32,000 bases of DNA from Candidatus Pelagibacter sp. HTCC7211 (GCF_000155895.1 NZ_DS995298.1:810001-842000), one strand, 5' to 3'; shown: positions 7,005 through 21,787, numbered from the stretch's first letter. Translations and numbers: made by a program. Notes: generated from the letters alone by a model not told the origin.

Positions 7005-7032
7005 AGTGAAATTTATCATTAAAAATTTCACT
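7005..7032. promoter_or_regulatory. operator copy 3: AGTGAAAT-N12-ATTTCACT
   Basis: Exact half-sites, 10 nt upstream of TTGACG 7043..7048. Confidence 0.75.
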
Positions 7033-7042
7033 CCCACCTGAG

Positions 7043-7070
7043 TTGACGGATTACACTTTTGCCTTATGAT
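7043..7070 (+). promoter_or_regulatory. promoter TTGACG-N16-TATGAT, then N6-ATG (leaderless geometry) for gene 7077
   Basis: TTGACG 7043..7048, TATGAT 7065..7070, ATG 7077. Near-identical to 8581..8608. Confidence 0.65.
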
Positions 7071-7076
7071 TAGTTT

Positions 7077-7637
7077 ATGAATACATTTAAATCTAACGAA
7101 GAAAATACTATCAGTAACTTTGTTTCAATTAACGAAGTAATTAACTATGAACCACCAAAATATATTCCTAACTGGGATGGTAGCTTTAATAAGATTAAAA
7201 GTGGTAAAAGCTCATACTTTAGACCCAATAAAGAGTTTTCTATTTTTAATATAAATATTATTAACAGTAACTCATTAAGATTAGATGCAAAATCTGAAGG
7301 TATTTATATTATCTTAAGTGAAAAGTTTAATTTCTTTTATGTTGGAAAAACCTTATCTAATATAAAACAAAGATTACACTCACACATACAAAAGCTTACC
7401 TCAACAAATAACAATAGGTATACAACACCTCTTAAATGGCAAAAGTTAGCATTTATCAGATATAATGCTTTAAAAGAAGAAAGTGTAAAGTTAGATGATC
7501 TTAAGATTAAATTTTATCATTCATCTGAATATTCAATGTGCAGTATTGATGAGCTAGAAAATAATATATATCTAAAATATAAAGCTTTATTGCCCAAATA
7601 CATATCATTGAATGATCCAAAGGCGCTTGAAAGTTAA
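7077..7637 (+). CDS. GIY-YIG nuclease domain protein (186 aa)
   Basis: Canonical GIYIILSEKFNFFYVGKTLSNIKQRLHSH (GIY-N10-YVG...R..H) followed by IDELENNIYLKY (catalytic Glu/Asn region). Confidence 0.7.
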   Translation: MNTFKSNEENTISNFVSINEVINYEPPKYIPNWDGSFNKIKSGKSSYFRPNKEFSIFNINIINSNSLRLDAKSEGIYIILSEKFNFFYVGKTLSNIKQRLHSHIQKLTSTNNNRYTTPLKWQKLAFIRYNALKEESVKLDDLKIKFYHSSEYSMCSIDELENNIYLKYKALLPKYISLNDPKALES

Positions 7638-8542: not shown

Positions 8543-8570
8543 AGTGAAATTGTTCAATTAACATTTCACT
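8543..8570. promoter_or_regulatory. operator copy 4: AGTGAAAT-N12-ATTTCACT in a divergent promoter region
   Basis: Exact half-sites, 10 nt upstream of TTGACG 8581..8586. On the other strand it overlaps the putative promoter of 8248..8523. Confidence 0.75.
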
Positions 8571-8580
8571 CCTAGCTTGG

Positions 8581-8608
8581 TTGACGGATTAGGTTTCTGT
8601 TTTATGAT
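8581..8608 (+). promoter_or_regulatory. promoter TTGACG-N16-TATGAT, then N6-ATG (leaderless geometry) for gene 8615
   Basis: TTGACGGATTA...TTATGATTAGGTTATG parallels 7043..7079 almost base for base. Confidence 0.65.
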
Positions 8609-8614
8609 TAGGTT

Positions 8615-8806
8615 ATGAAAACATATAAACCTTTTAAGTTAAAAATAAAAAAAAAATCTACCTATAAACCAATACGTTTTAAAAAGCCTAAACCTTATAA
8701 AAGGGGCAGGTTATTAAAAAATGGTATTACTCAGCATATGAGAGTTTCAATTACAGGTAGACGTTATTGGACACCGATTATCACTAAAATAGATCGTCCA
8801 GACTAA
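8615..8806 (+). CDS. very basic small hypothetical protein (63 aa)
   Basis: ORF track. Lys/Arg/Pro-rich (KLKIKKKSTYKPIRFKKPKPYKRGR). First gene after operator copy 4. Confidence 0.45.
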   Translation: MKTYKPFKLKIKKKSTYKPIRFKKPKPYKRGRLLKNGITQHMRVSITGRRYWTPIITKIDRPD

Positions 8807-10893: not shown

Positions 10894-10930
10894 TATAGGA
10901 TAACTTGCACCCTAGTTGCACTCAGAGATA
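10894..10930 (+). repeat. copy 0 of the TATAGGATAAC + (TTGCAC-N5-TTGCAC) + CAGAGATA junction motif
   Basis: TATAGGATAAC 10894..10904, TTGCAC 10905..10910 and 10916..10921. Homologous to 13584..13622 and 15403..15441. Confidence 0.6.
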
Positions 10931-10950
10931 CAATAATATAAAATATTTTT

Positions 10951-11106
10951 ATGGAAATGAAAGAATATGAATTTTATGTAACGTTACAAGATGGCAAAGG
11001 TTTTAAGGTTATTCAAAAAGCAAGAACAATGTCTGAAGCTAAACAAGCAGTAGAAGCACAGTATTCTAATGCTAAATCTGTTATGTTTACAAGAGTTCCT
11101 TATTAA
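10951..11106 (+). CDS. small ORF family member (51 aa; 49 aa if started at ATG 10957)
   Basis: Manual translation: MEMKEYEFYVTLQDGKGFKVIQKARTMSEAKQAVEAQYSNAKSVMFTRVPY. Same length and MK.Y...V....G....A..QY pattern as 9179..9328. Confidence 0.45.
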   Translation: MEMKEYEFYVTLQDGKGFKVIQKARTMSEAKQAVEAQYSNAKSVMFTRVPY

Positions 11107-11114
11107 GAAAGCTA

Positions 11115-11131
11115 TTGCACTATACTTACAC
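11115..11131 (+). repeat. tandem hexamers TTGCAC-N5-TTACAC (11-bp period)
   Basis: Same hexamer family and period as 10905..10921 and 13595..13611. Confidence 0.45.
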
Positions 11132-11180
11132 ATAAAAGAAAAAAATACTTAGTTTAAATTCTCGTAATATTTTTACATTA

Positions 11181-11207
11181 TTGACTAAATTAGTATCTCA
11201 ATATAAT
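11181..11207 (+). promoter_or_regulatory. promoter TTGACT-N15-TATAAT, 7 nt before ATG 11215
   Basis: Near-consensus hexamers. The spacer is short (15 nt). There is essentially no leader. Confidence 0.45.
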
Positions 11208-11214
11208 GTAAATT

Positions 11215-12051
11215 ATGCCATCAGTGAAAGAGATTGCAAAAGCAGCTAAATTAAAAGTTCAGTCAAAAAAAAAAATAACAAATGAAGCTTTTGATGAGAT
11301 AAAAAAAAATTTACCAGAAAATTGCGCACTATTATTACAAGTACTTAACAAAAGTTTTAAAATAAATAAAGATTTTGATGATTTAAATCACGAATTAAAG
11401 GAAATTACTAAAAATCTTCATTTTAATATAAATGATACATCATCAAAATATAAAAAAAGTATTAAAGATCTTTGGTCAAAAGAAAAAGCAGAACTTCAAA
11501 CAGATGGTATAATTATTTGTGATATATATTACAAAACAAAAAATTTAACTGCAAAGTATGGCTTTAAACAAATTGCAGATAAGAGCGAGGGCAATAGACA
11601 GCTAATAGCTGATGCACTTGCAAATCAAACTTATTATGACGATGTTATAATAAGAGTTTCTGCTAATCCAATTCAATCAATTGATGTTAATAATCTAACT
11701 AATCATCTTATTAATTTTTCAGAAATTGATATTAAAAAATTAGCACAATTAATTTCAAAAACCGAGTTTAATTGGACATTAATAACATTAGCAGGATTCT
11801 CTGGAGCAACGCCAAATAAAAAAATATATAAATTTAAAAATTATAAAAAAATGATTGAAAACCTTACCAATTTTTTAGTTGATGAGACTTCTAAAGAAAA
11901 AGGTGAAATTTTAAAATATTTTTCAAAAGGATTGGTTTCTTCAATATTTAGTATCGCAAATGAATTTTTGACAGGTTTTAAAAGAGAAGAAATTGATTTT
12001 GCTTCACAAATACTTTTTTATGATGAAAAGGGAAGAGAGAAGAAAATATAG
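11215..12051 (+). CDS. hypothetical protein (278 aa)
   Basis: ORF track. No recognisable motifs. Confidence 0.55.
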   Translation: MPSVKEIAKAAKLKVQSKKKITNEAFDEIKKNLPENCALLLQVLNKSFKINKDFDDLNHELKEITKNLHFNINDTSSKYKKSIKDLWSKEKAELQTDGIIICDIYYKTKNLTAKYGFKQIADKSEGNRQLIADALANQTYYDDVIIRVSANPIQSIDVNNLTNHLINFSEIDIKKLAQLISKTEFNWTLITLAGFSGATPNKKIYKFKNYKKMIENLTNFLVDETSKEKGEILKYFSKGLVSSIFSIANEFLTGFKREEIDFASQILFYDEKGREKKI

Positions 12052-12118
12052 AATAATTAAATAAATAAAATTATCTATATTTATAGTAAACTATTAAATA
12101 TATCTCTTTAAATTGTTT

Positions 12119-12274
12119 TTATCTAACTTCTTTTACTTGACCATTCTGCATGTAAATTCTAAATGATTTTCTACATTTTTTACAATAAGCGGGGCTACTA
12201 CCATTACTTACACCTACATTATGAGTGTCAGTATTCCCACAGCTTGGACAAGCTACAGTTTCTCTTGATGCCAT
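12119..12274 (-). CDS. small zinc-ribbon protein (51 aa), below the track size cutoff
   Basis: Manual translation of the minus strand: MASRETVACPSCGNTDTHNVGVSNGSSPAYCKKCRKSFRIYMQNGQVKEVR. It has CxxC...CxxC. Confidence 0.45.
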   Translation of the reverse strand: MASRETVACPSCGNTDTHNVGVSNGSSPAYCKKCRKSFRIYMQNGQVKEVR

Positions 12275-12360
12275 TAATAAATTATAATCTAAATATAATC
12301 GAAATACAATTAATATTAATATATAGAAATAGTTAAATAAGAAATAGAATATAAAAAAAA

Positions 12361-13170
12361 ATGTCTATATTAGATAAGTTAAATAAAAAAAAAGCTAATA
12401 ATAAATCTAATATTGAATCTGATCCAACACCTGATACTGAATTAGCTTATAAAGAAATTCACAAATTTCTTGCAACAACCTCCATTTTGATAAAGAAAGA
12501 AATGACTACTTATGTAGATGGTCTTATTAAAGCAAAATTTAAAAAAAAAAGTGATATTAATCGTTTTGAAAAAAATTTTAATAATTCAGCAATAACAGAT
12601 ACATATTGGTTTACTCAGAAAGATGGTTTTGAGTTAGATAAATTTGTTGCGGTAGGATTAAAAATTAAAAGTTTCAATGAACTACAAATTAAAGAAGAAG
12701 AAAAATTAATTAAATTTAATAAAAAAGAACCAAATTGGTTTAAACTAACCGGAGAAGATGGTGAAATTCCCTGGGAAAGTATTTCATTTTTAAAAAGAAA
12801 ATCTGCAAAACAAGCAGTACGAGATTTTAATCTAAATTACAAAAAAATTTTAGATATAAAAAATGTAAAAATTGAATTAAGTATTATATGCGCTTCAAAA
12901 ACTCTAAGTGGTAAAATCTCTGATATAGGATCAATTTTCTCAAAAAGAGTAGATACACATAAGGAAGATATATCATCATCAATAGATAGTAGTGTTAGTG
13001 ATGTGTTGTCTAAAATTGGAATAAAAAGAAATCCAGAAATTATTAAAATTTTGAGAGACACAAAACAAAAAGTTAAAGAGAAAGTTAAAGAAAGCTCTAT
13101 AAAAGATTATAAAAAAAATCTAGAAAAGATAACTGAATTATTGGCCTCAAAATATCTTAATATTTTATGA
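12361..13170 (+). CDS. Lys-rich hypothetical protein (269 aa)
   Basis: ORF track. Confidence 0.55.
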   Translation: MSILDKLNKKKANNKSNIESDPTPDTELAYKEIHKFLATTSILIKKEMTTYVDGLIKAKFKKKSDINRFEKNFNNSAITDTYWFTQKDGFELDKFVAVGLKIKSFNELQIKEEEKLIKFNKKEPNWFKLTGEDGEIPWESISFLKRKSAKQAVRDFNLNYKKILDIKNVKIELSIICASKTLSGKISDIGSIFSKRVDTHKEDISSSIDSSVSDVLSKIGIKRNPEIIKILRDTKQKVKEKVKESSIKDYKKNLEKITELLASKYLNIL

Positions 13171-13172
13171 TT

Positions 13173-13262
13173 ATGGCTAAATCACAATATGGTGAAGGTA
13201 ATGTTTTAGGTGCTCCAATGTTAGTGAGATCCTCATACAATAATAAAGAAGAAAATATTTGA
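13173..13262 (+). pseudogene. truncated 3' copy of the 9179..9328 small ORF
   Basis: 13173..13229 matches 9269..9325 at about 87% (ATGGCTAAATCACAATATGGTGAAGG...). Homology starts at an internal Met codon of the intact gene. Confidence 0.55.
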
Positions 13263-13304
13263 GTAAATGACAGTCGACAGAATTAAAAATTTAGAAAGTT
13301 AAAA

Positions 13305-13571
13305 ATGCTATATTCTGAAAAAGATGTTATTGAAAAAATTAAGAATTTAACAAAAACTGTTAAGAATGATCAAACATTTGAAAGTGTTGTTGATCGTTTT
13401 ATAAACGAAACCTTTGGTGATCCATCAGGCACAGGAAATACTGAGGGTGTAGAGTCATTGATATTAGATTTAACAAATAATAACGAAGAAATAAGAAAAT
13501 TTTTTAATAATGATCAATATAATATTTTAATTGAGAAATTAAATTTGTGGCAAGACCAAAATTTTGAATAA
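13305..13571 (+). CDS. small acidic hypothetical protein (88 aa)
   Basis: ORF track. Confidence 0.5.
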   Translation: MLYSEKDVIEKIKNLTKTVKNDQTFESVVDRFINETFGDPSGTGNTEGVESLILDLTNNNEEIRKFFNNDQYNILIEKLNLWQDQNFE

Positions 13572-13583
13572 ACTATAGGACTT

Positions 13584-13734
13584 TATAGGATAACTTGCAC
13601 AAGACTTGTACATGAGGAGATAAAATAAAAAAAATTTACTTATTAGCCTTGTTCAATTATAAATATTAGCATAAACACTCATGAAATTCATTAATGCCCT
13701 CGTGGTGAAATTGGTAGACACAAAGGACTTAAAA
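13584..13734 (+). repeat. direct repeat DR-L: junction motif + tRNA-Leu promoter region + 5' 39 nt of tRNA-Leu
   Basis: 13639..13734 is identical by eye to 15458..15553; 13584..13638 is diverged. The tRNA part (13696..13734) stops at the anticodon loop (CTTAAAA). Confidence 0.85.
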
Positions 13735-13757
13735 GGCGAGGGATAGAAGTTAAAGTC

Positions 13758-13783
13758 AGTCCATAGTAGTCCAAGGCAGTCTA
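13758..13783 (+). repeat. three tandem AGTCCA/AGTCTA sites, 10-bp period
   Basis: AGTCCAtagtAGTCCAaggcAGTCTA, just inside the left end of the insertion. Confidence 0.45.
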
Positions 13784-13861
13784 AAAAATCCTATAAAATC
13801 TTATAACCTTAACTTAGCTTTAAATTAATATTGGATAATAAGACTTAATTAATTTGTGCAA

Positions 13862-13881
13862 ACCAGCACAAAACCAGCACA
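13862..13881 (+). repeat. tandem CAGCAC sites (11-bp period), left-end copy
   Basis: 19/20 identical to 15412..15431 at the right end of the same insertion. Confidence 0.6.
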
Positions 13882-13970
13882 TAAATAGTTAAAAAAATTT
13901 TATTTACAACCCAAACTAGAGGGATATTTGTTTTTATTTACAAATATAGTCAATCTTATAAAATGAAATT

Positions 13971-14336
13971 GTGAGTTTAAAAAAAAAGTTACTATGTAGT
14001 GTAGCAGTTGCCACTGTAGCTATACCTTTATCATTAAACAATATTACTTCTTCTGCTAAAGCTGAATCTTGCTACTCCCTTGGTAACTCAATTTATTGCA
14101 GTGATGGTTTTAGCGCCTATTCTCTTGGAAACTCGGTTTATGGTAATGATGGTTATAGTTCATACTCTTTAGGTAACTCAACTTATGGCAATGATGGTTT
14201 TAGTTCCTATTCTCTTGGAAACTCGGTTTATGGTAATGATGGTTTTAGTGCCTATTCTCTTGGAAACTCGATTTATGGTAATGATGGTTTCAGTGCCTAT
14301 TCTCTTGGAAACTCTATATATAGTTTTGGCAATTAA
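13971..14336 (+). CDS. secreted repeat protein, 5.8 copies of the 15-aa unit YSLGNS(I/V/T)YGNDG(F/Y)S(A/S) (121 aa)
   Basis: GTG start. Sec-type signal (LLCSVAVATVAIPLSLNNITSSAKA|E). The whole mature part is G/N/S/Y-rich repeats. Confidence 0.6.
   Translation: MSLKKKLLCSVAVATVAIPLSLNNITSSAKAESCYSLGNSIYCSDGFSAYSLGNSVYGNDGYSSYSLGNSTYGNDGFSSYSLGNSVYGNDGFSAYSLGNSIYGNDGFSAYSLGNSIYSFGN
14073..14333 (+). repeat. in-frame 45-bp tandem DNA repeat (about 5.8 units)
   Basis: Units such as TATTCTCTTGGAAACTCGGTTTATGGTAATGATGGTTTTAGTGCC repeat head-to-tail with a few substitutions. Confidence 0.9.
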
Positions 14337-15059
14337 TTGAAAACAATTAAAGTTGGGTGGTTTATAGACGACACACATAGAGCTAAATTTCTTTTTAATG
14401 AACCTTTTCCAGTAAAAAAAACCAGAAGAATTCCTTTATCAAAAAGAGCGGTACAGGCATGTCCTGCAGTCAATCACTTCGAAAGACGATATTTTCAAGT
14501 AAACTTTCCTTACGATCTGAGACTAAGATATGAGTTTGAAAATGAAAAACATAATTTGTATGTAATTCCAGAAGAAACAAGAATCGACGATGATTTAATT
14601 GCACAAAATATTGTTTTAATGCCTCCAAAATTTTGGAGGGATGAAAATTTTCCAACTATTCAAATAATGTGTCCTTATGTTTTTATATCTGATGATGATG
14701 TTTTTATGTCACAACTACCACCATTCTTAGACTATAAGCATAATTTATGGCCTGGTTTAGTGACAGCAGGAAGGTTTCCTATAAATATTTGGCCAAGAAT
14801 TCTTTCTTGGGGATTTGAGTGGGTCGATAAAAAAAAAGATTTAATTTTTAAAAGAGGTGACCCCTGGTTTTATGTTTTTTTTGAATCAAAAGACCCAACT
14901 GACATAATTAATTTAATAATGGCTGATAATACTGATGAATTAAAAGAATATAGGAAAGGTATAGCAGATACTGTTAAATACACTTCAAATTCTTTTGGAT
15001 TATTTGAAGAAGCAAAAAAAAGAAGGCCAAAAAAACTTTTAAAAGAAAGGAAAAAGTGA
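14337..15059 (+). CDS. hypothetical protein (240 aa), coupled to the repeat protein
   Basis: ORF track. The TTG start immediately follows the TAA of 13971..14336, so the start is uncertain. Basic C-terminal tail. Confidence 0.5.
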   Translation: MKTIKVGWFIDDTHRAKFLFNEPFPVKKTRRIPLSKRAVQACPAVNHFERRYFQVNFPYDLRLRYEFENEKHNLYVIPEETRIDDDLIAQNIVLMPPKFWRDENFPTIQIMCPYVFISDDDVFMSQLPPFLDYKHNLWPGLVTAGRFPINIWPRILSWGFEWVDKKKDLIFKRGDPWFYVFFESKDPTDIINLIMADNTDELKEYRKGIADTVKYTSNSFGLFEEAKKRRPKKLLKERKK

Positions 15060-15355
15060 TGAGTATTAAATCTAATTTCTATTATGACGCTGTTAAAGGA
15101 ATTTATTTAAATGATAATATAGTAAAATTTAATATGGTTTCAGTACCAATGTCTCAAAACGAAATTGAAGAAAAAATTACATTAATTTCTTCGTTAAGTC
15201 GTTTCGAAGCAATGGTTAATTTTTTAAGTGGAGAACTAAAAAAGATGAAATCTTTAGAAATTTCAAACAATGGAGAAAATTCTGCTGAGGAAAAAATAGA
15301 AAATGAAAAAAAACCTGAAAAAGGTAAAATTTTAGGTTCTTTTGAAAAAAAATAA
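15056..15355 (+). CDS. hypothetical protein (99 aa)
   Basis: ORF track. GTGATG overlap with the upstream gene. Confidence 0.5.
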   Translation: MMSIKSNFYYDAVKGIYLNDNIVKFNMVSVPMSQNEIEEKITLISSLSRFEAMVNFLSGELKKMKSLEISNNGENSAEEKIENEKKPEKGKILGSFEKK

Positions 15356-15402
15356 AATTATAAAAAAATTAAGATATTAATTAAATTAATCGTCCTATAA
15401 AG

Positions 15403-15553
15403 TATAGGATAACCAGCACAAGACCAGCACACAGAGATATAAAATAAAAAAAATTTACTTATAGGTCTTGTTCAATTATAAATATTAGCATAAACACTCA
15501 TGAAATTCATTAATGCCCTCGTGGTGAAATTGGTAGACACAAAGGACTTAAAA
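15403..15553 (+). repeat. direct repeat DR-R (partner of 13584..13734), continuous with intact tRNA-Leu
   Basis: See DR-L. Preceded by the perfect palindrome TCCTATA-aag-TATAGGA (15393..15409). Confidence 0.85.
15454..15482 (+). promoter_or_regulatory. candidate tRNA-Leu/nadK promoter TTTACT-N17-TATAAA
   Basis: Good hexamers and spacing about 35 nt upstream of the tRNA. The same element is duplicated at 13635..13663. Confidence 0.4.
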
Positions 15554-15600
15554 TCCTTGCCGCTTGCGGAGTGCCAGTTCGAGTCTGGCCGAGGGCACCA
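15515..15600 (+). tRNA. tRNA-Leu (anticodon UAA)
   Basis: Manual cloverleaf: acceptor GCCCTCG/CGAGGGC, anticodon loop CT-TAA-AA, long variable arm, T-loop TTCGAGT, encoded CCA. Confidence 0.9.
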
Positions 15601-15604
15601 CTAA

Positions 15605-16375
15605 ATGAGCAAACCTCAAATTATTTCTGACAAAAATAAAAAATCATCAAATATTAAAAATTTACTTTTAAAAAAAATTAAAAATTACTCATTTAAACAA
15701 AAAGATCTTGTAATTGTCATTGGTGGTGATGGCTTTATGCTTAAAACATTAAAAAAAATTAAAAATTCAAAAAAAAGATTTTATGGAATTAATTCAGGAA
15801 ATTATGGATTCTTAATGAATAAGTTTTCTTCAAAAAATATAATTAAGAATTTATCTAATGCTAATATGATTTCAATTTCACCTCTAGAAATGGTTGTAAA
15901 AAATAAGAATAATCAAACAAAAAAATCCTTAGCTATTAATGAAGTTTCAGTACTAAGACAAAGCAGACAAGCAGCATCTTTATCAATTAAACATGGTTCA
16001 AAACAAATTATTAAGAATTTAGTTTCAGATGGAGTTCTAGTATCAACACCTGCGGGGAGTACTGCTTACAATCTGTCAGTTCATGGACCTATATTAGGGT
16101 TAAACTCAAAAAAATTATCTATTGCTCCCATTAGCCCATTTAGACCTAGAAGATGGAGGGGTAAAATAGTTGGTGATAAATTAAAAATTATAATTACTAA
16201 TTTAAACACAACCAAAAGGCCAATTAGTGCTGTTGCTGATAATTTAGAAGTTAGAAATGCTAAGTCTATTTCTATTCAAACTAATAATAAAATTAAGTTC
16301 AATCTTCTTTATGACAAAAATAGAAGCTTACAAAAAAAAATTAAAATTGAACAATTAAGAAGAGAAACAAGCTAA
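15605..16375 (+). CDS. nadK: NAD(+) kinase
   Basis: VIVIGGDGFML, GINSGNYGFL, NEVSVLR and DGVLVSTPAGSTAYNLSVHGPIL are NAD kinase signatures. The ATG is 4 nt after the tRNA-Leu CCA. Confidence 0.9.
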   Translation: MSKPQIISDKNKKSSNIKNLLLKKIKNYSFKQKDLVIVIGGDGFMLKTLKKIKNSKKRFYGINSGNYGFLMNKFSSKNIIKNLSNANMISISPLEMVVKNKNNQTKKSLAINEVSVLRQSRQAASLSIKHGSKQIIKNLVSDGVLVSTPAGSTAYNLSVHGPILGLNSKKLSIAPISPFRPRRWRGKIVGDKLKIIITNLNTTKRPISAVADNLEVRNAKSISIQTNNKIKFNLLYDKNRSLQKKIKIEQLRRETS

Positions 16376-16397: not shown

Positions 16398-16443
16398 TGG
16401 TGCTTTCGCACGGATTCGAACTATAGACCTATTGATTATAAAT
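16398..16443 (-). repeat. decayed copy of the 3' end of tRNA-Thr (att-like site 1)
   Basis: TGGTGCtttCGCACGGATTCGAACtataGACCTATTGATTAtAAATt against the intact gene. All 9 differences are GC-to-AT transitions. Confidence 0.75.
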
Positions 16444-16504
16444 TAAAATTCATTTTTTTAAATAAGCATTATCTATTATCATTAATTGTTGAATATATTT
16501 AGTC

Positions 16505-16533
16505 TAGTCACACACTAATCAGAATGATAAGGT
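16505..16533 (+). promoter_or_regulatory. cassette C promoter TAGTCA-N17-TAAGGT (TG-extended), 7 nt before GTG 16541
   Basis: Positionally homologous to the cassette A and B promoters. Confidence 0.4.
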
Positions 16534-16540
16534 TTTTATT

Positions 16541-17581
16541 GTGAAAAATATTTTCATCTCATCACTTTTTTATTTATTTTTATTTTTACCATATTTAAAT
16601 TATACAAATGCTGATCACACACTTTTGCATAATTTAAATCAAAAAAAAGCAAAATCCAAAAATGAAATACAAGGATCAACATCGGCCAAAGACACTACTA
16701 AAACTCCAACTTTAGAAAAGTGTAAAAAAAAGATTGCTACTCTAGCAGTTGTTGAGCCGCAAGATTATGAGATGTTGGCATTATCACAATACTCTTTACC
16801 TTCACCAACATCATTAATAAGACTAATAGTACAACAGTCTAATTGTTTTATTGTTTTGGAAAGAGGTATTGCTATGCAAAATTTATTACAAGAAAGAACT
16901 CTTTCATCTTCAGGAGAGTTAAAGCAAGACCAAAATATGGGTAAAGGTCAAATGATTACAGCTGATTATATTTTAACACCAACGATTATATTTAAAGAAG
17001 CTAACACCGGAGGTGTGGGTGGATTATTAGGGGGATTATTACCTGGCAACGCTGGTTCTGTTGCTGGAATTATTGGAGGTAGTTTAAAATTTAGTGAGTC
17101 TCAAACCTCACTTACACTAGCTGATACAAGAAGTGGAATCCAAGTTGCTGCTGCTGCTGGTGCTTCTAAAAAATCAAGTTTTGGAGTTGTTGCAGGTTTA
17201 GGAGGAAGCTCAGCTGCAGCTGGTTTGGGTGCTTACTCAAATACTCCTGAAGGTAAAGTTGTAGCCGCAGCTTTTTTACAAACTTATAACTCTATAGTAG
17301 ATACAATTGAAGGTGATAAAGACCTAATAAGAGAAAACTCCTTACTAGAATTTAAAAAAGAAGGAGGAAAGAAAATTAAAAAAGCAAAAAAAAGTATTGT
17401 TGGAGAAGTTAGATTATCAAAAATAAATAATGTTCCAGTATTTACAAAACCTGATGGAGAAAATATTATATTTAAACTTACTTCAAAAGAAGAGGTTGTT
17501 ATATTGGGTGAAGAGGGAGATTACTATAATATAATGGGATCTGGTGGAGAAGGTTGGGTAAAAAAAATTTTAATTAAATAA
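16541..17581 (+). CDS. CsgG-family protein with Gly-rich insert and C-terminal SH3b-like domain (346 aa)
   Basis: SLIRLIVQQSNCFIVLERGIAMQNLLQERTL and ITADYILTPTIIFKEANTGGVGG parallel CsgG (AMLVTALKDSRWFIPLERQGLQNLLNERKI; ANIMVEGSIIGYESNVKSGGVGA). The C-terminus VPVFTKPDG...VVILGEEGDYYNI...GWVKK is SH3b-like. Confidence 0.6.
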   Translation: MKNIFISSLFYLFLFLPYLNYTNADHTLLHNLNQKKAKSKNEIQGSTSAKDTTKTPTLEKCKKKIATLAVVEPQDYEMLALSQYSLPSPTSLIRLIVQQSNCFIVLERGIAMQNLLQERTLSSSGELKQDQNMGKGQMITADYILTPTIIFKEANTGGVGGLLGGLLPGNAGSVAGIIGGSLKFSESQTSLTLADTRSGIQVAAAAGASKKSSFGVVAGLGGSSAAAGLGAYSNTPEGKVVAAAFLQTYNSIVDTIEGDKDLIRENSLLEFKKEGGKKIKKAKKSIVGEVRLSKINNVPVFTKPDGENIIFKLTSKEEVVILGEEGDYYNIMGSGGEGWVKKILIK

Positions 17582-17685
17582 CTAAATTATAAATAAATCC
17601 TGTAGGCAATTGCTACACACTTAATATAAATATTTATATAAAATCAAATTCTTCAAATATAATAATCTTTGATTTAATTTAATGA

Positions 17686-17736
17686 TGGTGCCCCCGCACG
17701 GATTCGAACCGCGGACCTATTGATTACAAATCAATT
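17686..17736 (-). repeat. exact copy of the 3' 51 nt of tRNA-Thr (att-like site 2)
   Basis: TGGTGCCCCCGCACGGATTCGAACCGCGGACCTATTGATTACAAATCAATT is identical to 20935..20985. Confidence 0.9.
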
Positions 17737-17790
17737 CTAAAAGTTTAAATAAACATATGTTTGCAACAATAATCTTAAAATATATTTAGC

Positions 17791-17820
17791 TTGGCAACAA
17801 TCTGGCAACAGTGATAAAGT
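17791..17820 (+). promoter_or_regulatory. cassette B promoter TTGGCA-N18-TAAAGT (TG-extended), N6-ATG; overlapped by the tandem 11-mers TGGCAACAATC/TGGCAACAGTG
   Basis: 11-mers at 17792..17813, -10 at 17815..17820, ATG at 17827. Confidence 0.45.
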
Positions 17821-17826
17821 TTTTTT

Positions 17827-18417
17827 ATGAAGCGAAATGGTTTCACATTAATAGAACTCTTAGTCGTAGTAGCAATCATCGGTATACTTGCTGCAGTGGG
17901 TGTTGTTGCTTATGATGGTTATACTAGTATTGCAAAAGATAATGCTGTTAAGGTAAATTGTAAACAAGTTGCTTCAGAGATAGGTTCGAAGTTTGGTTTT
18001 TGTGCAATGAATCCTGGATCATCTATACAACTAAAATCAATTGGTGGAAGACAAACCATAGAAAATGTTCAATGTGATAAAAATAAAACCAGTACAGGAC
18101 AGATGTTAATCAAAATAGTTAATCATTTAAATAATGAAGGTTATAAAAATCCTTATGGACATAATAGTGGTACAGAAGGTGTTCATAATGGACCCGGTGC
18201 CTATCAAGCAAGTTCTGGACTTTGGTGGCAAGATTTAATGATTAAAGGAAATAGCTATGATAAGTTATCACTAGGTAGATGTGTAGTGCAATATCATACC
18301 AATGGAGATATTGGTGTTACAGGTTTTTTTGATGCGGGAACTTTTAAAGCAAATGGTCGTGACCTTTCAGAAGCATTGCAATGGACACAATTAATCATGA
18401 CAGCTGATACTAGATGA
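17827..18417 (+). CDS. type IV pilin-like / pseudopilin protein with prepilin N-terminal motif (196 aa)
   Basis: MKRNG|FTLIELLVVVAIIGILAAVGVVAY is the canonical prepilin cleavage/methylation domain. Confidence 0.85.
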   Translation: MKRNGFTLIELLVVVAIIGILAAVGVVAYDGYTSIAKDNAVKVNCKQVASEIGSKFGFCAMNPGSSIQLKSIGGRQTIENVQCDKNKTSTGQMLIKIVNHLNNEGYKNPYGHNSGTEGVHNGPGAYQASSGLWWQDLMIKGNSYDKLSLGRCVVQYHTNGDIGVTGFFDAGTFKANGRDLSEALQWTQLIMTADTR

Positions 18418-18914
18418 AACAAAAAGGTTTCACCCTAATAGAACTCTTAGTCGTAGTTGCAATCATCGGTATTCTCGCTGCAGTAGGTGTGGTTGCTTAT
18501 AGTGGATATACGAGTGGTGCAAAGAAATCTGCCATTAAATCAAATTTTAAAACTGTAGAAAAATATACATCTGCTGAATTAATGAAGTGTCAAATAGGTC
18601 AAACAGATATTTTTATAAACTCTGGATCAAATAAAGTTAGTTGTAGTGGTGTAGATAATCCAGGTAGAACTTATACAGCAATGGTTTTTGATCCTAGTCT
18701 TAGATTCTTAAATCCAATTAATAATGGAATTGGAAATAGAGCTGACCAACATGTATTAAGAAACGATGTTTATAAAGGATCAAACATACCAGACAACATG
18801 ACTGGTTATATTTTTTTAAATTTCGGATCAACTTGGCCAGCAACTATGAGATCTTGTATTGAGGCACCTTGTTCAAATCCAAACAACATCTTAACTTCAA
18901 GTATTAATTATTAG
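18414..18914 (+). CDS. type IV pilin-like / pseudopilin protein, paralog with divergent C-terminus (166 aa)
   Basis: MKQKG|FTLIELLVVVAIIGILAAVGVVAY. ATGA overlap with the upstream pilin gene. Confidence 0.85.
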   Translation: MKQKGFTLIELLVVVAIIGILAAVGVVAYSGYTSGAKKSAIKSNFKTVEKYTSAELMKCQIGQTDIFINSGSNKVSCSGVDNPGRTYTAMVFDPSLRFLNPINNGIGNRADQHVLRNDVYKGSNIPDNMTGYIFLNFGSTWPATMRSCIEAPCSNPNNILTSSINY

Positions 18915-18918
18915 CAAC

Positions 18919-18972
18919 CGACTACTTGATTTGATAACAAACTGACAACAATCTGACAACACTTATTGTTGT
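18919..18972 (+). repeat. cassette B right end: CGACTACTTGAT box + three tandem 11-mers + an inverted copy
   Basis: CGACTACTTGAT 18919..18930. TGATAACAAAC, TGACAACAATC and TGACAACACTT span 18932..18964. ATTGTTGT is at 18965..18972. Confidence 0.65.
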
Positions 18973-19018
18973 AAGATTAGTTCCTGCATAGATATTTTAT
19001 ATGAAAAAGTAAGTGAAG

Positions 19019-19066
19019 TGGTGCCCCCGCACGGATTCGAACCGCGGACCTATTGATTACAAATCA
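19019..19066 (-). repeat. exact copy of the 3' 48 nt of tRNA-Thr (att-like site 3)
   Basis: Identical to 20935..20982. The 6 nt beyond the tRNA end (GTGAAG, 19013..19018) also match 20929..20934. Confidence 0.9.
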
Positions 19067-19124
19067 GGAATAAAACTTTAAATAGATCTTTGTTTTCAAC
19101 GAAATTCAATATTTAACTTTGATA

Positions 19125-19153
19125 TAGTCACACTAGCGTCACAGTGATAATAT
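19125..19153 (+). promoter_or_regulatory. cassette A promoter TAGTCA-N17-TAATAT (TG-extended), N6-ATG; overlapped by the tandem 11-mers
   Basis: 11-mers at 19126..19147, -10 at 19148..19153, ATG at 19160. Confidence 0.45.
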
Positions 19154-19159
19154 TTTTGT

Positions 19160-19627
19160 ATGGGAGATATTAATAAAGCACCAAATGACTTTTTCGAAAA
19201 TTGGAATAACCTTAAAAGTATGCCTTATAAAAATGTTATCGAACAATTTGTTAAAAGAAGTGATGAAAATAAAATGATGAATGCTACTCAGTTTGAAATT
19301 GAAAACTTCCCAAAGAAAGTTCGCAAAGATTTAACTGTTTCTGAAACTAATATATTTTATCACGGCTTATCAGGATTATTCAAAGATGATAAATGGTGGA
19401 AAGATGCGTCAGTTGCTGATGCTTGTACGTTTTATTTATCTTGTGCACGAAACTTTATTCCATATTTTAAAGATTATGCACAAGAGGAAGATAATCTATC
19501 TCAAAAGCAAAAAAATGAAATTTTTAGCTTATATCAAATATGTACATTATTTATTTCTTGGAACGCGATGAGAGAAAAGAATTTAAGAAAAATTATGGGT
19601 ATTAAGAAGGGTTTATTTTTAAGATGA
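19160..19627 (+). CDS. hypothetical protein (155 aa)
   Basis: ORF track. Confidence 0.55.
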   Translation: MGDINKAPNDFFENWNNLKSMPYKNVIEQFVKRSDENKMMNATQFEIENFPKKVRKDLTVSETNIFYHGLSGLFKDDKWWKDASVADACTFYLSCARNFIPYFKDYAQEEDNLSQKQKNEIFSLYQICTLFISWNAMREKNLRKIMGIKKGLFLR

Positions 19628-20076
19628 AAAAACTTTTAGGGATCGTGGTTCTTGGTTTGTTGTTGAGTGGGAATTCTTATGCAAAGATTATAAAACTACA
19701 CTGTGAATTTATAGCAGGGAATATTATTGAAAAAGTACCTCACCCTGGTCACGAGGATATTAAAAAAAATACAACGTATATTTCAATTAGTGAACACGAT
19801 ATAAAAGGCTATAATATAAAATTGGACACAACGAAGGAAGAAATTATTGAGGCTCCAAATTATAGTTCAGATGGTTCTACACGTATGTTTGGTGATGAAA
19901 TAATAGAATGGTTTGCTGCGCTTGGCTCTGGATCAGAACTTAAAGTACGCTACACATTAAATCGATATACTGGTCGATTAAGAGAATATCACAAACATTA
20001 TAAATATGGAGATACAGAAAATAACTATTGGATGGATCTTATTTATGATTGTTCAAAAGCTAAAAAATTATTTTAA
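19624..20076 (+). CDS. secreted hypothetical protein (150 aa)
   Basis: ORF track. Signal peptide LGLLLSGNSYA|K. ATGA overlap with the upstream gene. Confidence 0.55.
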   Translation: MKKLLGIVVLGLLLSGNSYAKIIKLHCEFIAGNIIEKVPHPGHEDIKKNTTYISISEHDIKGYNIKLDTTKEEIIEAPNYSSDGSTRMFGDEIIEWFAALGSGSELKVRYTLNRYTGRLREYHKHYKYGDTENNYWMDLIYDCSKAKKLF

Positions 20077-20077
20077 T

Positions 20078-20266
20078 ATGAAAAAACTTTTTGAAGATTT
20101 TAAGACACTAGATAACTCTTGGAAATTTATTATTGTAGGTAGTTTAATTGGATTGGTTGGTTATGTGATGAGTGAAACAGTTACTTATGAATTTTGGTAT
20201 TCTTTTCACTGGGTTGGTTTAGGTATAGCAATTTTTGGCTGGTTGATGGCAGCTTTTGGAAAATAA
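20078..20266 (+). CDS. small two-TM membrane protein (62 aa)
   Basis: Track ORF 20006..20266 trimmed to the ATG at 20078, just after the upstream stop. Two hydrophobic helices. Confidence 0.45.
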   Translation: MKKLFEDFKTLDNSWKFIIVGSLIGLVGYVMSETVTYEFWYSFHWVGLGIAIFGWLMAAFGK

Positions 20267-20268
20267 AA

Positions 20269-20820
20269 ATGAAAAAATTTTTAGAGATAACTATTCTTTG
20301 GCTTTTTTTAATTGGAAATTCTTATGCTATTGAAAATTGGGAAATTAAAAAAGTTATAGATAATAAATATATAGAAATATCTACAGAGGGACTTAATGTT
20401 AAAGGTGATAAATATAAGCTCCTTATGAAGCTAAATGGAAAATGTGATACTATTGAAGATGGCTTTACGTTTTATACAACAAAAAATAATCCAGGAGTTA
20501 TGCTTCTACCAGGAAAGAAAATTAAAATTGAGTCTATGGGAAAAATATTTGCATCTGAAATAAAAGCGGTTGTTCCAGTTTTAAGTGGTTCTCATCATCT
20601 AGTTTGGATAACAAATGGATTATATGAGTTTGAAGGACATACAAACTTTATAAGCCAAAGTGAAAAAAATGACGTTAAGTTACATTTTGTATTTGATGAT
20701 TTTGAGAAAGGAACAGGTTGGGAAGCAAAAGAATTTTTTAATGAAACAGAAAATACTTGGAGTCTGAAGAATTTTTCTGAAGCTGTGAAGTTGGGTCAAA
20801 AAATGTGTTTGGATAACTAA
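20269..20820 (+). CDS. secreted hypothetical protein (183 aa)
   Basis: Track ORF 20194..20820 trimmed to the ATG at 20269. Signal peptide LWLFLIGNSYA|I is similar to that of 19624..20076. Confidence 0.55.
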   Translation: MKKFLEITILWLFLIGNSYAIENWEIKKVIDNKYIEISTEGLNVKGDKYKLLMKLNGKCDTIEDGFTFYTTKNNPGVMLLPGKKIKIESMGKIFASEIKAVVPVLSGSHHLVWITNGLYEFEGHTNFISQSEKNDVKLHFVFDDFEKGTGWEAKEFFNETENTWSLKNFSEAVKLGQKMCLDN

Positions 20821-20822
20821 AA

Positions 20823-20869
20823 CGACTACTTGATCACACCACACTCACGTCACACTAACGTCACACTCA
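20823..20869 (+). repeat. cassette A right end: CGACTACTTGAT box + three tandem 11-mers
   Basis: CGACTACTTGAT 20823..20834. CACCACACTCA, CGTCACACTAA and CGTCACACTCA span 20837..20869. Confidence 0.65.
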
Positions 20870-20934
20870 TTAAAGAAATTTAATTTAAACTAAAACTTTA
20901 GAAAAAAATTTAACGTTGATTTTATTGAGTGAAG

Positions 20935-21010
20935 TGGTGCCCCCGCACGGATTCGAACCGCGGACCTATTGATTACAAATCAATTGCTCTACCAACTGAG
21001 CTACAAGGGC
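20935..21010 (-). tRNA. tRNA-Thr (anticodon UGU)
   Basis: Manual cloverleaf on the minus strand: acceptor GCCCTTG/CGGGGGC (two G-U pairs), anticodon loop TT-TGT-AA, T-loop TTCGAAT, encoded CCA. Confidence 0.9.
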
Positions 21011-21043: not shown

Positions 21044-21787
21044 TCAACTCTTTTTTTTTAAATAACTTAAATGATGAAATACAATTGCTGCACTATTTGA
21101 GATATTTAGACTTTCTATATCTTTATTTATATCTATTTTAACAAAAAAATCAGCGTATTTACCTGTATGTTCTTTCATACCAAAACCTTCGGATCCAAAA
21201 AGAAGAACATTTTTTCCTTCCCACTTAACATCAGTAAAATTTTTTTCGCCTCTTGCATCAAAACCATATACCCAAAAATTTTTCTCTCTTAAATTTTTAA
21301 GTGTAGAATTTATATTTGATACTTTAAAAATGTTTAGATGTTCCATACACCCACTTGCTGATTTATACATCAGCTTACTATCACTTGGAAAATGTCTTTC
21401 TTTGACAATTAATCCATCAATTTTAAATGATGCAGCACTTCTAATTAATGAACCAATATTTCTTGGATCAGTTACTTCATCCAAACATACAAAAGTACAA
21501 TCTTTTTTCTCTTTTATAAACTCTTTGAGATCAGGCTGTTCAAGATGTTCAACTTCTGCAATGTAACCATTATGCATTAATTGTTCTTTTGAAGTGTATT
21601 TATCTAATTCTTTTTTTGATTTAAAGTAAACTTTGACATCTTCTAATACATTTTTTCTAGAGTTCTTTTTATGAATATTTTTTTTTGCATCTTCAGTTAA
21701 AAATACTCTTAAAACCTTCCTGTTAGGATTTCTGAGAGCTTCTATTACAGCATGTTGGCCAGCGATGAAAAAGGATGATTTATTCAT
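21044..21787 (-). CDS. rlmB: TrmH/SpoU-family rRNA 2'-O-methyltransferase (RlmB-like)
   Basis: GQHAVIEAL N-terminal substrate-binding region, LDEVTDPRNIGSLIRSAASF, LLFGSEGFGM and SLNISNSAAIVF are SpoU methylase motifs. Confidence 0.85.
   Translation of the reverse strand: MNKSSFFIAGQHAVIEALRNPNRKVLRVFLTEDAKKNIHKKNSRKNVLEDVKVYFKSKKELDKYTSKEQLMHNGYIAEVEHLEQPDLKEFIKEKKDCTFVCLDEVTDPRNIGSLIRSAASFKIDGLIVKERHFPSDSKLMYKSASGCMEHLNIFKVSNINSTLKNLREKNFWVYGFDARGEKNFTDVKWEGKNVLLFGSEGFGMKEHTGKYADFFVKIDINKDIESLNISNSAAIVFHHLSYLKKKS

Follow-up and report, generated by a model that had tools for sequence, protein, structure and literature searches.

Small gene cassettes stacked beside the tRNA-Thr(UGU) gene of Candidatus Pelagibacter sp. 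HTCC7211 very probably accumulated by serial integrase-mediated insertion, although none of them encodes an integrase. The stack occupies positions 16398-21010 of the 32,000-nucleotide stretch that we analysed (GCF_000155895.1 NZ_DS995298.1:810001-842000, hereafter the window) and consists of three units, each beginning with a copy of the tRNA 3′ end. Across the genomes and metagenomes we compared, such cassettes share one anatomy, vary between populations, carry tandem 11-mers that co-vary between their left and right ends, and have matching counterparts in integrase-bearing elements. Judging from their sequence organization, we put the probability that they form a still mobilizable, integrase-dependent family at roughly two in three.

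The repeats and units of the window agree with the original prediction, which described recurring tRNA-Thr 3′ ends that delimit units of 1.9, 1.3 and 1.3 kb with a common layout. All three tRNA fragments were recovered, two exact and one decayed (Table 1), and all share the orientation of the tRNA-Thr gene; a 14-mer from the tRNA 3′ end (GCACGGATTCGAAC) occurs four times against 0.01 expected by chance. The units measure 1916, 1333 and 1288 bp, and every listed feature of the layout was found again in the window, including the conserved left-end box and the right-end repeats. Fragment 1 is the oldest and most distal copy, while cassette 3, which lies nearest the tRNA, is probably the newest. 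No integrase homologue was detected in the window by tblastn, nor by Pfam on the open reading frames (ORFs) of the cassettes and island, in agreement with the prediction that the window holds no recombinase. The genome is SAR11 subclade Ia-like, and the nearest loci, 97-98% identical in the neighboring SpoU methyltransferase, come from single-cell genomes of Pelagibacteraceae.

Using the neighboring SpoU protein, we retrieved this locus from 80 SAR11 species genomes, and a metagenome scan with the left-end motif added 120 contigs, giving 135 fragments and 74 complete units in total. Because the metagenome loci were chosen by the motif itself, which introduces a selection bias, conservation statistics are restricted to 33 genome-derived cassettes selected via the SpoU gene. 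Occupancy counts refer to the 56 SAR11 genomes with both ppnK and tRNA-Thr inside the locus.

Cassettes in this family follow a standard plan, and its order is given here from genome-derived cassettes only, which were not chosen by motif. Complete units span 202-7822 bp, with a median of ~1.3 kb (n = 74). Identity between the fragments and the tRNA gene runs 46-62 nt from the 3′ end, always covers the loop of the anticodon (TTACAAA) and breaks off within or beyond the stem's 5′ strand; the stem sequences ATTGA and TCAAT flank this loop as inverted half-sites, as in an attP core (attP and attB denoting the attachment sites of element and chromosome). The fragment is followed by ~60 nt of a few related types containing a TT.AAATA.ATA box, and then by two tandem left 11-mers of the form NNNNCACACT-NNNNCACAG. 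The motif TGnTAnnnT is present in 30/32 genome-derived cassettes, at offset 126 in nearly all, and the start codon of a long ORF lies 5-8 nt past it in 22 cassettes. The first cargo codon thus falls ~142 nt from the fragment start across unrelated cargo. Each cassette carries 1-5 cargo genes, always on one strand, with a box (A)ACGACTACTTGAT (the CGACTACTTGAT box) directly past the last stop codon, then 2-5 tandem 11-mers of the cassette's own type and ~55 nt in two variants (...TTTGCAAAAATAATTAGTGTTGATTTTATTGAGTGA or ...CACTTATTGT..AAAAAGTAAGTGAAG), after which the next fragment or the tRNA gene begins. Both cassette ends are conserved, and since Rfam returned only tRNAs over 13-23 kb of the window, they do not represent a known RNA family. 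The two right-end variants bear out part of the suggestion that two element lineages are present, but the flank pairing on which it was based mixes both variants, and the pairing of site 3 with the intact gene through GTGAAG does not hold: at the intact gene, this sequence is part of the GAGTGA variant. At the lower size limit is an "empty" cassette of 202 nt (L025, reverse-complement coordinates 3873-4074), in which a tRNA fragment and left end lead through three contiguous 11-mers straight to the right end, and which holds no gene.

Cassettes also have promoter-like features at their left end. The arrangement there, with TGnTAnnnT ~6 nt ahead of a start codon that lacks a Shine-Dalgarno sequence, has the look of an extended -10 promoter that gives a leaderless mRNA, and we infer that the left end is a putative promoter of this type for the cargo. 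In window cassette 2 the left 11-mers overlap an extended -10-like sequence, TGATAAAGT (17812-17820), and the ATG lies 6 nt on, at 17827; in cassette 3 they overlap TGATAATAT, again with the ATG 6 nt on, at 19160. The predicted position of a promoter beneath the tandem 11-mers is right as regards motif and repeats, and the promoter itself is a prediction from the sequence.

The 11-mers at the two ends of a cassette are matched to each other. Left and right 11-mers of one cassette share 4.04 7-mers on average, compared with 1.06 between cassettes, and 0/10,000 permutations reached the observed value (P < 1e-4). Within arrays, the right end matches the left end of its own cassette and not that of the next cassette across the shared fragment, so the unit with matched arms is the cassette from fragment to fragment; the right-arm 11-mers of window cassette 2, for example, are of the same type as those of its left arm. 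A circularized cassette would have a single core with such arms on both sides and so be built like an attP, and the 11-mers are putative integrase-binding sites of the arm type.

Integrase-bearing elements share this architecture. An IMG/VR contig (L002) contains GAGTGAAG and 56 nt of the tRNA-Thr 3′ end flanked on both sides by tandem 11-mers (TCCGCAAT), and encodes a 328-aa tyrosine integrase (Pfam Phage_integrase, E = 1e-18) whose ATG lies 94 nt past the core, the position of the first cargo codon in cassettes. This integrase has 3947 homologues in the protein collection, found in elements of 5.5-7 kb composed of an integrase, small ORFs and a DUF5906 or AAA_25 primase/helicase; several (L208-211, L212 and L214-216) assembled as circular permutations or concatemers. 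L002, L208-211 and L212-216 have the core and spacing of the cassettes, with matched 11-mers in the P and P′ arms. The type of 11-mer differs among elements whose integrases are 73-79% identical and whose N terminus, which has variable residues, is Int_N-like (E = 4e-4, below the Pfam cut-off). We found GGTCGCA in L208, GTCCGCA in L002, TGCAACA in L212, GATCACA in L213, AAGCACACT in L214-216 and CGTCACACT at a second att of L215. Several of these types recur in cassettes: window cassette 3 has CGTCACACT/AGCGTCACA, and its left arm carries the repeat that flanks an attP of L215; AAGCACACT occurs in the right ends of the commonest ("type A") cassettes; TGCAACA is present in L158; and GTCCGCA-like 11-mers are present in L019, L075 and L121.

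The cassettes themselves are nearly free of integrase sequence. Across the 80 genome loci, only the cassette of L005 holds integrase sequence, an N-terminal stump of 78 aa, and 33/37 genome cassettes have no trace of integrase or backbone. Cassettes likewise lack the primase/helicase replication module, while their relatives carry a DUF5906 or AAA_25 primase, and terS. The proposed search for integrases with the same attP was successful in L002 and L208-216, and the description of the cassettes as integrase-less units served by a trans-acting integrase is supported by shared core, geometry and 11-mer types, with mobilization as the inferred step. Cassettes may be mobilized as circles in trans or, in cis, through accretion with a neighboring integrase element. 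Other database searches were less informative: blastn against a cultured-phage database gave generic tRNA matches only, a 38-nt core scanned against IMG/VR hit two contigs (a phage tRNA cluster and L002), and the L002 integrase used as a query for related loci in IMG/VR matched only itself.

The array is best explained as an additive genomic island that grew as a tyrosine integrase recombined, time after time, within the anticodon loop of tRNA-Thr(UGU). In this model each unit is a miniature integrative element that carries only cargo and that has a complete attP once its ends are joined. The P arm consists of the CGACTACTTGAT box, 2-5 putative arm-type sites in the form of tandem 11-mers and ~55 nt, the core is the tRNA 3′ half, and the P′ arm comprises ~60 nt and two tandem 11-mers. 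The first cargo gene begins exactly where the integrase gene starts in autonomous relatives, and the second left 11-mer overlaps the putative extended -10 element, which would yield leaderless cargo mRNA. Integrase would be supplied by circular integrase-plus-primase elements of 5.5-7 kb, resembling virion-encapsidated integrative mobile elements (VEIMEs) and tycheposons, whose lineages differ in their 11-mers, with cassettes bearing matching ones. New cassettes would enter at the intact tRNA and displace older ones outward, where they would decay.

Occupancy of the site varies widely among SAR11 genomes. The position between ppnK and tRNA-Thr/SpoU is common to all 56 evaluable genomes and is thus a conserved chromosomal location, yet it is empty in 12/56 (10 of these 12 hold only a conserved 44-codon ORF), contains 1-3 tRNA fragments in 24/56 and has 0.2-7.8 kb of extra DNA without a recognizable fragment in 20/56. 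Cassettes fall into ~114 sequence clusters, and the 84 cargo ORFs of the genome set into 79. Among 121 motif matches in metagenomes, the tRNA-Thr core lies upstream in 83, and none has a different tRNA immediately upstream; in most of the remainder the contig breaks off or the fragment is decayed or missing, and ~9 are chance hits. The array is not invariant, with 0-3 fragments per genome, which bears on the presence/absence check that had been suggested. In the empty-site genomes (L024, L027, L034, L070 and others) the 44-codon ORF encodes a small hydrophobic protein (MNKFNPII...CYVRIE...LTAW) and lies directly before the tRNA 3′ end; it is missing from the window, where the oldest fragment abuts ppnK.

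Cassettes also assort independently and age outward. The distal fragment is more mismatched than the proximal one in 10/10 informative adjacent comparisons (P ~0.002, two-sided sign test), which fits insertion at the intact tRNA. The same cassette can stand beside different neighbors, as with C2 in L138 and L158 and also C1, C7 and C10, and a cassette common to L013 and L023 is 97.0% identical, compared with 87.4% over 6 kb of conserved core flank. In L089 (FUFK010015006.1) a 1.9-kb cassette is present twice in tandem with 99.7% identity, and the tandem junctions differ by 2 nt (CAAATC/TTGTATC versus CAAATCAA/TTGTATC, where the slash marks the junction), a difference (TC/TTG, TCAA/TTG) that fits two integrations better than unequal crossing-over. 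Varying occupancy, independent assortment, distal decay and the excess identity of the shared cassette all agree with the serial site-specific accretion that was originally proposed.

Cargo in the window ranges from recognizable envelope proteins to proteins without known function (Table 1). The two pilin-like proteins of cassette 2 have N-terminal methylation motifs (Pfam N_methyl, E = 1e-8 and 9e-10), and together with the CsgG-like protein of cassette 1 they are in line with the prediction of envelope or secreted cargo. The prediction holds only in part, since the four proteins of cassette 3 have no known function: none has a Pfam match (0/4), and two have signal-peptide-like MKK...L N termini.

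Table 1. Features of the tRNA-Thr array and its surroundings, in window coordinates
Feature	Position	Strand	Details
tRNA-Leu unit	13735-15514	+	matched CCAGCACA tandem 11-mers at both ends
tRNA-Leu(TAA)	15515-15600	+	
NAD kinase (ppnK)	15605-16375	+	between tRNA-Leu(TAA) and array
Cassette 1	16398-17685	+	1288 bp, both ends decayed, one-gene cargo
tRNA-Thr 3′ fragment 1	16398-16443	-	decayed, 37/45 identical (8 mismatches in first 45 nt)
Cassette 1 cargo	16541-17581	+	346-aa CsgG-like lipoprotein; Pfam CsgG E = 1.1e-11; weak C-terminal SH3_3 match
Cassette 2	17686-19018	+	1333 bp
tRNA-Thr 3′ fragment 2	17686-17736	-	51 nt exact
Cassette 2 left arm	17790-17820	+	tandem 11-mers GGCAACA x2 at 17793, 17804
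Cassette 2 cargo	17827-18914	+	two type IV pilin-like genes, 17827-18417 and 18414-18914
Cassette 2 right arm	18919-18963	+	CGACTACTTGAT box at 18919; 11-mers GATAACA, GACAACA x2 (18933-18961)
Cassette 3	19019-20934	+	1916 bp
tRNA-Thr 3′ fragment 3	19019-19066	-	48 nt exact, ends 3 nt beyond anticodon loop
Cassette 3 left arm	19123-19153	+	tandem 11-mers AGTCACACT/AGCGTCACAG (GTCACAC/GTCACAG) at 19127, 19138
Cassette 3 cargo	19160-20820	+	four small genes: 19160-19627, 19624-20076, ~20078-20266, ~20269-20820
Cassette 3 right arm	20823-20868	+	CGACTACTTGAT box at 20823; 11-mers CCACACT, GTCACAC x2 (20839-20866)
TTTAAATA(A/G) boxes	16457, 17744, 19077		left ends of cassettes 1-3
TGnTAnnnT	16525, 17812, 19145		left ends of cassettes 1-3
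tRNA-Thr(UGU), intact	20935-21010	-	attB/attR end of array; ARAGORN; Rfam tRNA, 72.5 bits
SpoU methylase	21044-21787	-	then tRNA-Tyr, tRNA-Gly, tuf region, rpoB

Several observations weigh against a family of mobilizable cassettes with integrase-binding arms and a promoter at the left end. About 30% of cassettes have unmatched left and right 11-mers. A type-A left end with cargo occurs without a tRNA-Thr fragment in L179 (at tRNA-Met(CAU)) and L199 (at tRNA-fMet), so the module of 11-mers and promoter may serve expression too, or instead, or cassettes may have been captured by other elements. Gene-level mosaicism begins at the ATG: identical cargo can follow left ends of different types, and the similarity then starts at or near the ATG, indicating that other recombination also shuffles modules. 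A scan of IMG/VR with the cassette motif gave no match, and no circular cassette junction was seen among the collected contigs. Finally, a simple promoter scan of the region did not exceed shuffled sequence overall and flagged only cassette 2 (TTGGCA-18-TAAAGT with TG). Terminal overlaps in L118 and L178 were considered as candidates for circular cassettes and rejected, since they lie inside the repeated core and are expected from de Bruijn assembly.

One possibility is that the cassettes are dead scars, left where integrase-bearing elements or prophages inserted serially and deletions then removed integrase and backbone, so that immobile cargo persists between att remnants. The L005 cassette, in which the integrase stump is the first ORF and cargo comes next, has the appearance of such a scar, and the same history could account for L204-207, where a chromosomal integrase is present and the left fragment is lost, for the many genomes with fragment-less extra DNA at the site, and for L057 and L063, which retain only right-end remnants. 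Random deletion, however, would not place the starts of unrelated cargo at one offset in ~30 independent cassettes or keep both arms intact and matched, and the absence of integrase or backbone in 33/37 genome cassettes also argues against it; we consider this history possible but unlikely. Turnover could alternatively proceed mainly by homologous recombination, through the flanks (ppnK, tRNA and SpoU) or through the 48-nt repeats and conserved ends, with site-specific integration confined to an ancient origin. SAR11 recombines at high rates (PMC2217521), the same cargo sits behind different left-end types (window cassette 3 versus L203; L013 versus L113), second genes are common to cassettes with differing first genes, and the cargo-less L025 cassette resembles a deletion between left and right 11-mers. 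We nonetheless regard this as very unlikely to be the main process, because it leaves unexplained both the matched arms in the format of integrase-bearing attPs and the fragment ends just beyond the anticodon loop, and because the differing L089 junctions are not expected from unequal crossing-over.

The 11-mers admit another function that is compatible with mobilizable cassettes, namely as operators or promoter elements through which a transcription factor would regulate the cargo, in place of arm-type sites. Their overlap with the -10-like element and the type-A modules far from any tRNA-Thr core in L179 and L199 favor such a role. We think it improbable, given that the same 11-mers recur at the right end of the cassette, from which nothing is transcribed, and that in integrase elements they stand on either side of the core and vary together among closely related integrases. 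Nothing beyond the existence of repeats speaks for the idea that the fragments come from a tRNA gene that was duplicated and then decayed, and this origin is effectively refuted: only the 3′ 46-62 nt are repeated and never the 5′ half, the number of fragments ranges from 0 to 3 among genomes, and every fragment is tied to conserved element ends.

Related integrase loci show a range of other arrangements. In L204-L207 a chromosomal integrase 84% identical to that of L002 lies at the ppnK/tRNA-Thr locus; genes for NeuB, CMP-sugar synthetase and glycosyltransferase come next, and a type-A-like right end adjoins the intact tRNA, so that the tRNA-Thr site here holds a larger island for surface glycans. 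L179 (minus strand) carries a tRNA-Met(CAU) 3′ fragment, tandem 11-mers (CTTGTACTCAC x2), a 315-aa integrase, a primase/helicase and a terS-like gene, after which come the type-A left end, a cargo gene as in L013, L023 and L113, and a right end of the TATAGGATAA family, as at the tRNA-Leu of the window. Just downstream of the integrase, ~190 nt of noncoding sequence are conserved between L179 (4590-4400, minus strand) and L204 (10985-11170), that is, between a tRNA-Met element and an integrase at the tRNA-Thr locus; the sequence opens with a GGGAGAGAGAATAAGAGAA...TTCTCTCTTTCTCTC hairpin and may be a regulatory RNA or a binding region. At L199 (1-420), tandem repeats (CGTCTTGACGTAG/CCTTGACGTAAG) and a 41-aa N-terminal integrase stump come after an intact tRNA-Met of the initiator type, and a cassette with a type-A promoter reads toward the stump from the opposite contig end.

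The array combines features of several known systems. Additive islands linked to tRNA genes and containing partial tRNA repeats are described in Alteromonas (PMC4898812), Ca. Methylopumilus (PMC10872708) and SAR11 (GI-20/30/50/58, PMC11796062). As far as the available text of these papers goes, they share with the array a tRNA hot spot, cassettes bounded by partial-tRNA direct repeats and strain-variable content, and we find the same conserved tRNA position, direct repeats and variation in cassette number and identity here; the SAR11 islands, as described in that text, and this array also both lack canonical mobile elements (PMC11796062). In contrast, that text gives no standard anatomy (fixed start offset, matched 11-mers, CGACTACTTGAT box and leaderless-type promoter) and does not link cassettes to specific integrase-bearing elements, and its cassettes are far larger than those described here (median ~1.3 kb). 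Cis-mobilizable elements (CIMEs) related to the Streptococcus integrative and conjugative elements (ICEs) ICESt1 and ICESt3 are bounded by the att sites of an autonomous element without its integrase or excisionase, occur in tandem at one site, and are thought to move by the recombinase of a relative through accretion-mobilization (review PMC5704250). Our cassettes similarly lack recombination and transfer genes and have the core and arm layout of L002 and L208-216. CIMEs, however, are few, usually several kb long and regarded as decayed ICEs, whereas here there are >100 cargo sets in a uniform promoter-plus-cargo design, and the putative donors are satellite-like integrase-primase elements.

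The closest known counterparts of those putative donors are the tycheposons of Prochlorococcus (bioRxiv 10.1101/2020.12.28.424599) and the Pelagibacter-associated VEIME phage satellites (PMC9618062), small elements with a tyrosine recombinase and primase/helicase that insert at tRNA 3′ ends, stand in tandem with partial tRNAs between them, give rise to islands and appear as concatemers or circles. The integrase-bearing L002, L179 (with terS) and L208-216 fit this description. The window cassettes likewise stand in tandem at the 3′ portion of a tRNA gene and are bounded by partial repeats of it, but with no recombinase or replication gene they fall outside the definition, and they look like parasites or derivatives of such elements. 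Their likeness to integron cassettes lies in small, mostly one- or two-gene, promoter-proximal units of huge cargo diversity, stacked at a single site in one orientation, the newest beside the insertion point. They differ in that no intI lies beside the arrays (window and 80 genome loci), that there is no attI, that each cassette has its own promoter-like element, that the ends consist of a linear box, tandem direct 11-mers and a tRNA fragment and not of attC (no attC model was applied), and that recombination at a tRNA core with putative arm-type direct repeats would correspond to the chemistry of heterobivalent phage-type integrases. The suggested resemblance to integrons therefore holds as an analogy and fails as membership. 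The standardized design, the co-varying arms shared with satellite-type integrases and the scale of cargo diversity appear undescribed in the literature searched, which is itself an incomplete selection.

A second array lies at tRNA-Leu(TAA) (window 10894-15600) as a mirror image of the tRNA-Thr array. Its repeat comprises the tRNA 5′ 40 nt and 111 nt upstream (13584-13734 versus 15403-15553, 91% identical), and no integrase is present in it. The unit preceding that in Table 1 has a right end with ACTTGCACAAG/ACTTGTACATG, and a third right-end signature, TATAGGATAAC, which no longer has its tRNA fragment, is found at 10894. In the tRNA-Leu cassette, the first gene (13971-14336) encodes a signal-peptide protein with about six 15-aa repeats (SLGNS.YGNDGFS.Y), encoded by 45-nt tandem repeats and without a Pfam match. 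In L070 (11770-17000), where the tRNA-Thr site is empty, a 347-aa integrase and phage-like small ORFs lie directly upstream of tRNA-Leu(TAA), with three tandem repeats (..GTGCAT) between the integrase stop and the tRNA, whose 5′ part is altered; this arrangement is consistent with the pelagiphage integration published for tRNA-Leu(TAA) (bioRxiv 10.1101/410191). Elsewhere in the window, a 90-nt direct repeat (7005-7094 and 8543-8632, 79% identical, 1538 nt apart) opens with a short hairpin (AGTGAAATT...AATTTCACT) immediately ahead of small genes, including one for a GIY-YIG protein (7077-7637), and may be another kind of cassette boundary.

Cargo across the family includes nuclease- and restriction-related domains (HNH, NucS_C, PDDEXK, MrcB_N, SAD_SRA and HSDR_N_2), DUF4268, T5orf172, PrsW and trypsin-like proteases, as well as an autotransporter, a dimethylsulfoniopropionate (DMSP) lyase, AhpC (a peroxiredoxin), and CBS and TPR proteins. 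Some cargo matches PADLOC candidate single-gene defense systems and type IV restriction enzymes. The cargo thus bears on phage-host dynamics and on niche adaptation.

SAR11 bacteria have an open pangenome, yet the available text of one study reports no canonical mobile elements in their genomic islands (PMC11796062), so the entry of single flexible genes calls for an explanation. The locus offers a testable mechanism, with a defined attB (the tRNA-Thr anticodon loop), cassette ends and candidate integrases with matching arms. SAR11 has, to our knowledge, no established genetic system, and a compact attP with a small integrase could become a genetic tool for the group. Tentatively, and a little short of even odds, we propose a distributed, integron-like form of gene capture in SAR11, in which standardized cassettes of one or two genes have a full attP and a leaderless promoter but encode no enzyme, integrases borne by satellites insert and excise them, and arm sites have diversified along with integrase lineages. 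If this is true, the cassettes would be hyper-parasites of phage satellites and the main route by which streamlined SAR11 cells sample defense, surface and metabolic genes, and the same principle would operate at tRNA-Leu(TAA) with another integrase family. Together, our results suggest how a bacterium thought to be free of mobile DNA acquires single genes, through cassettes at tRNA-Thr.

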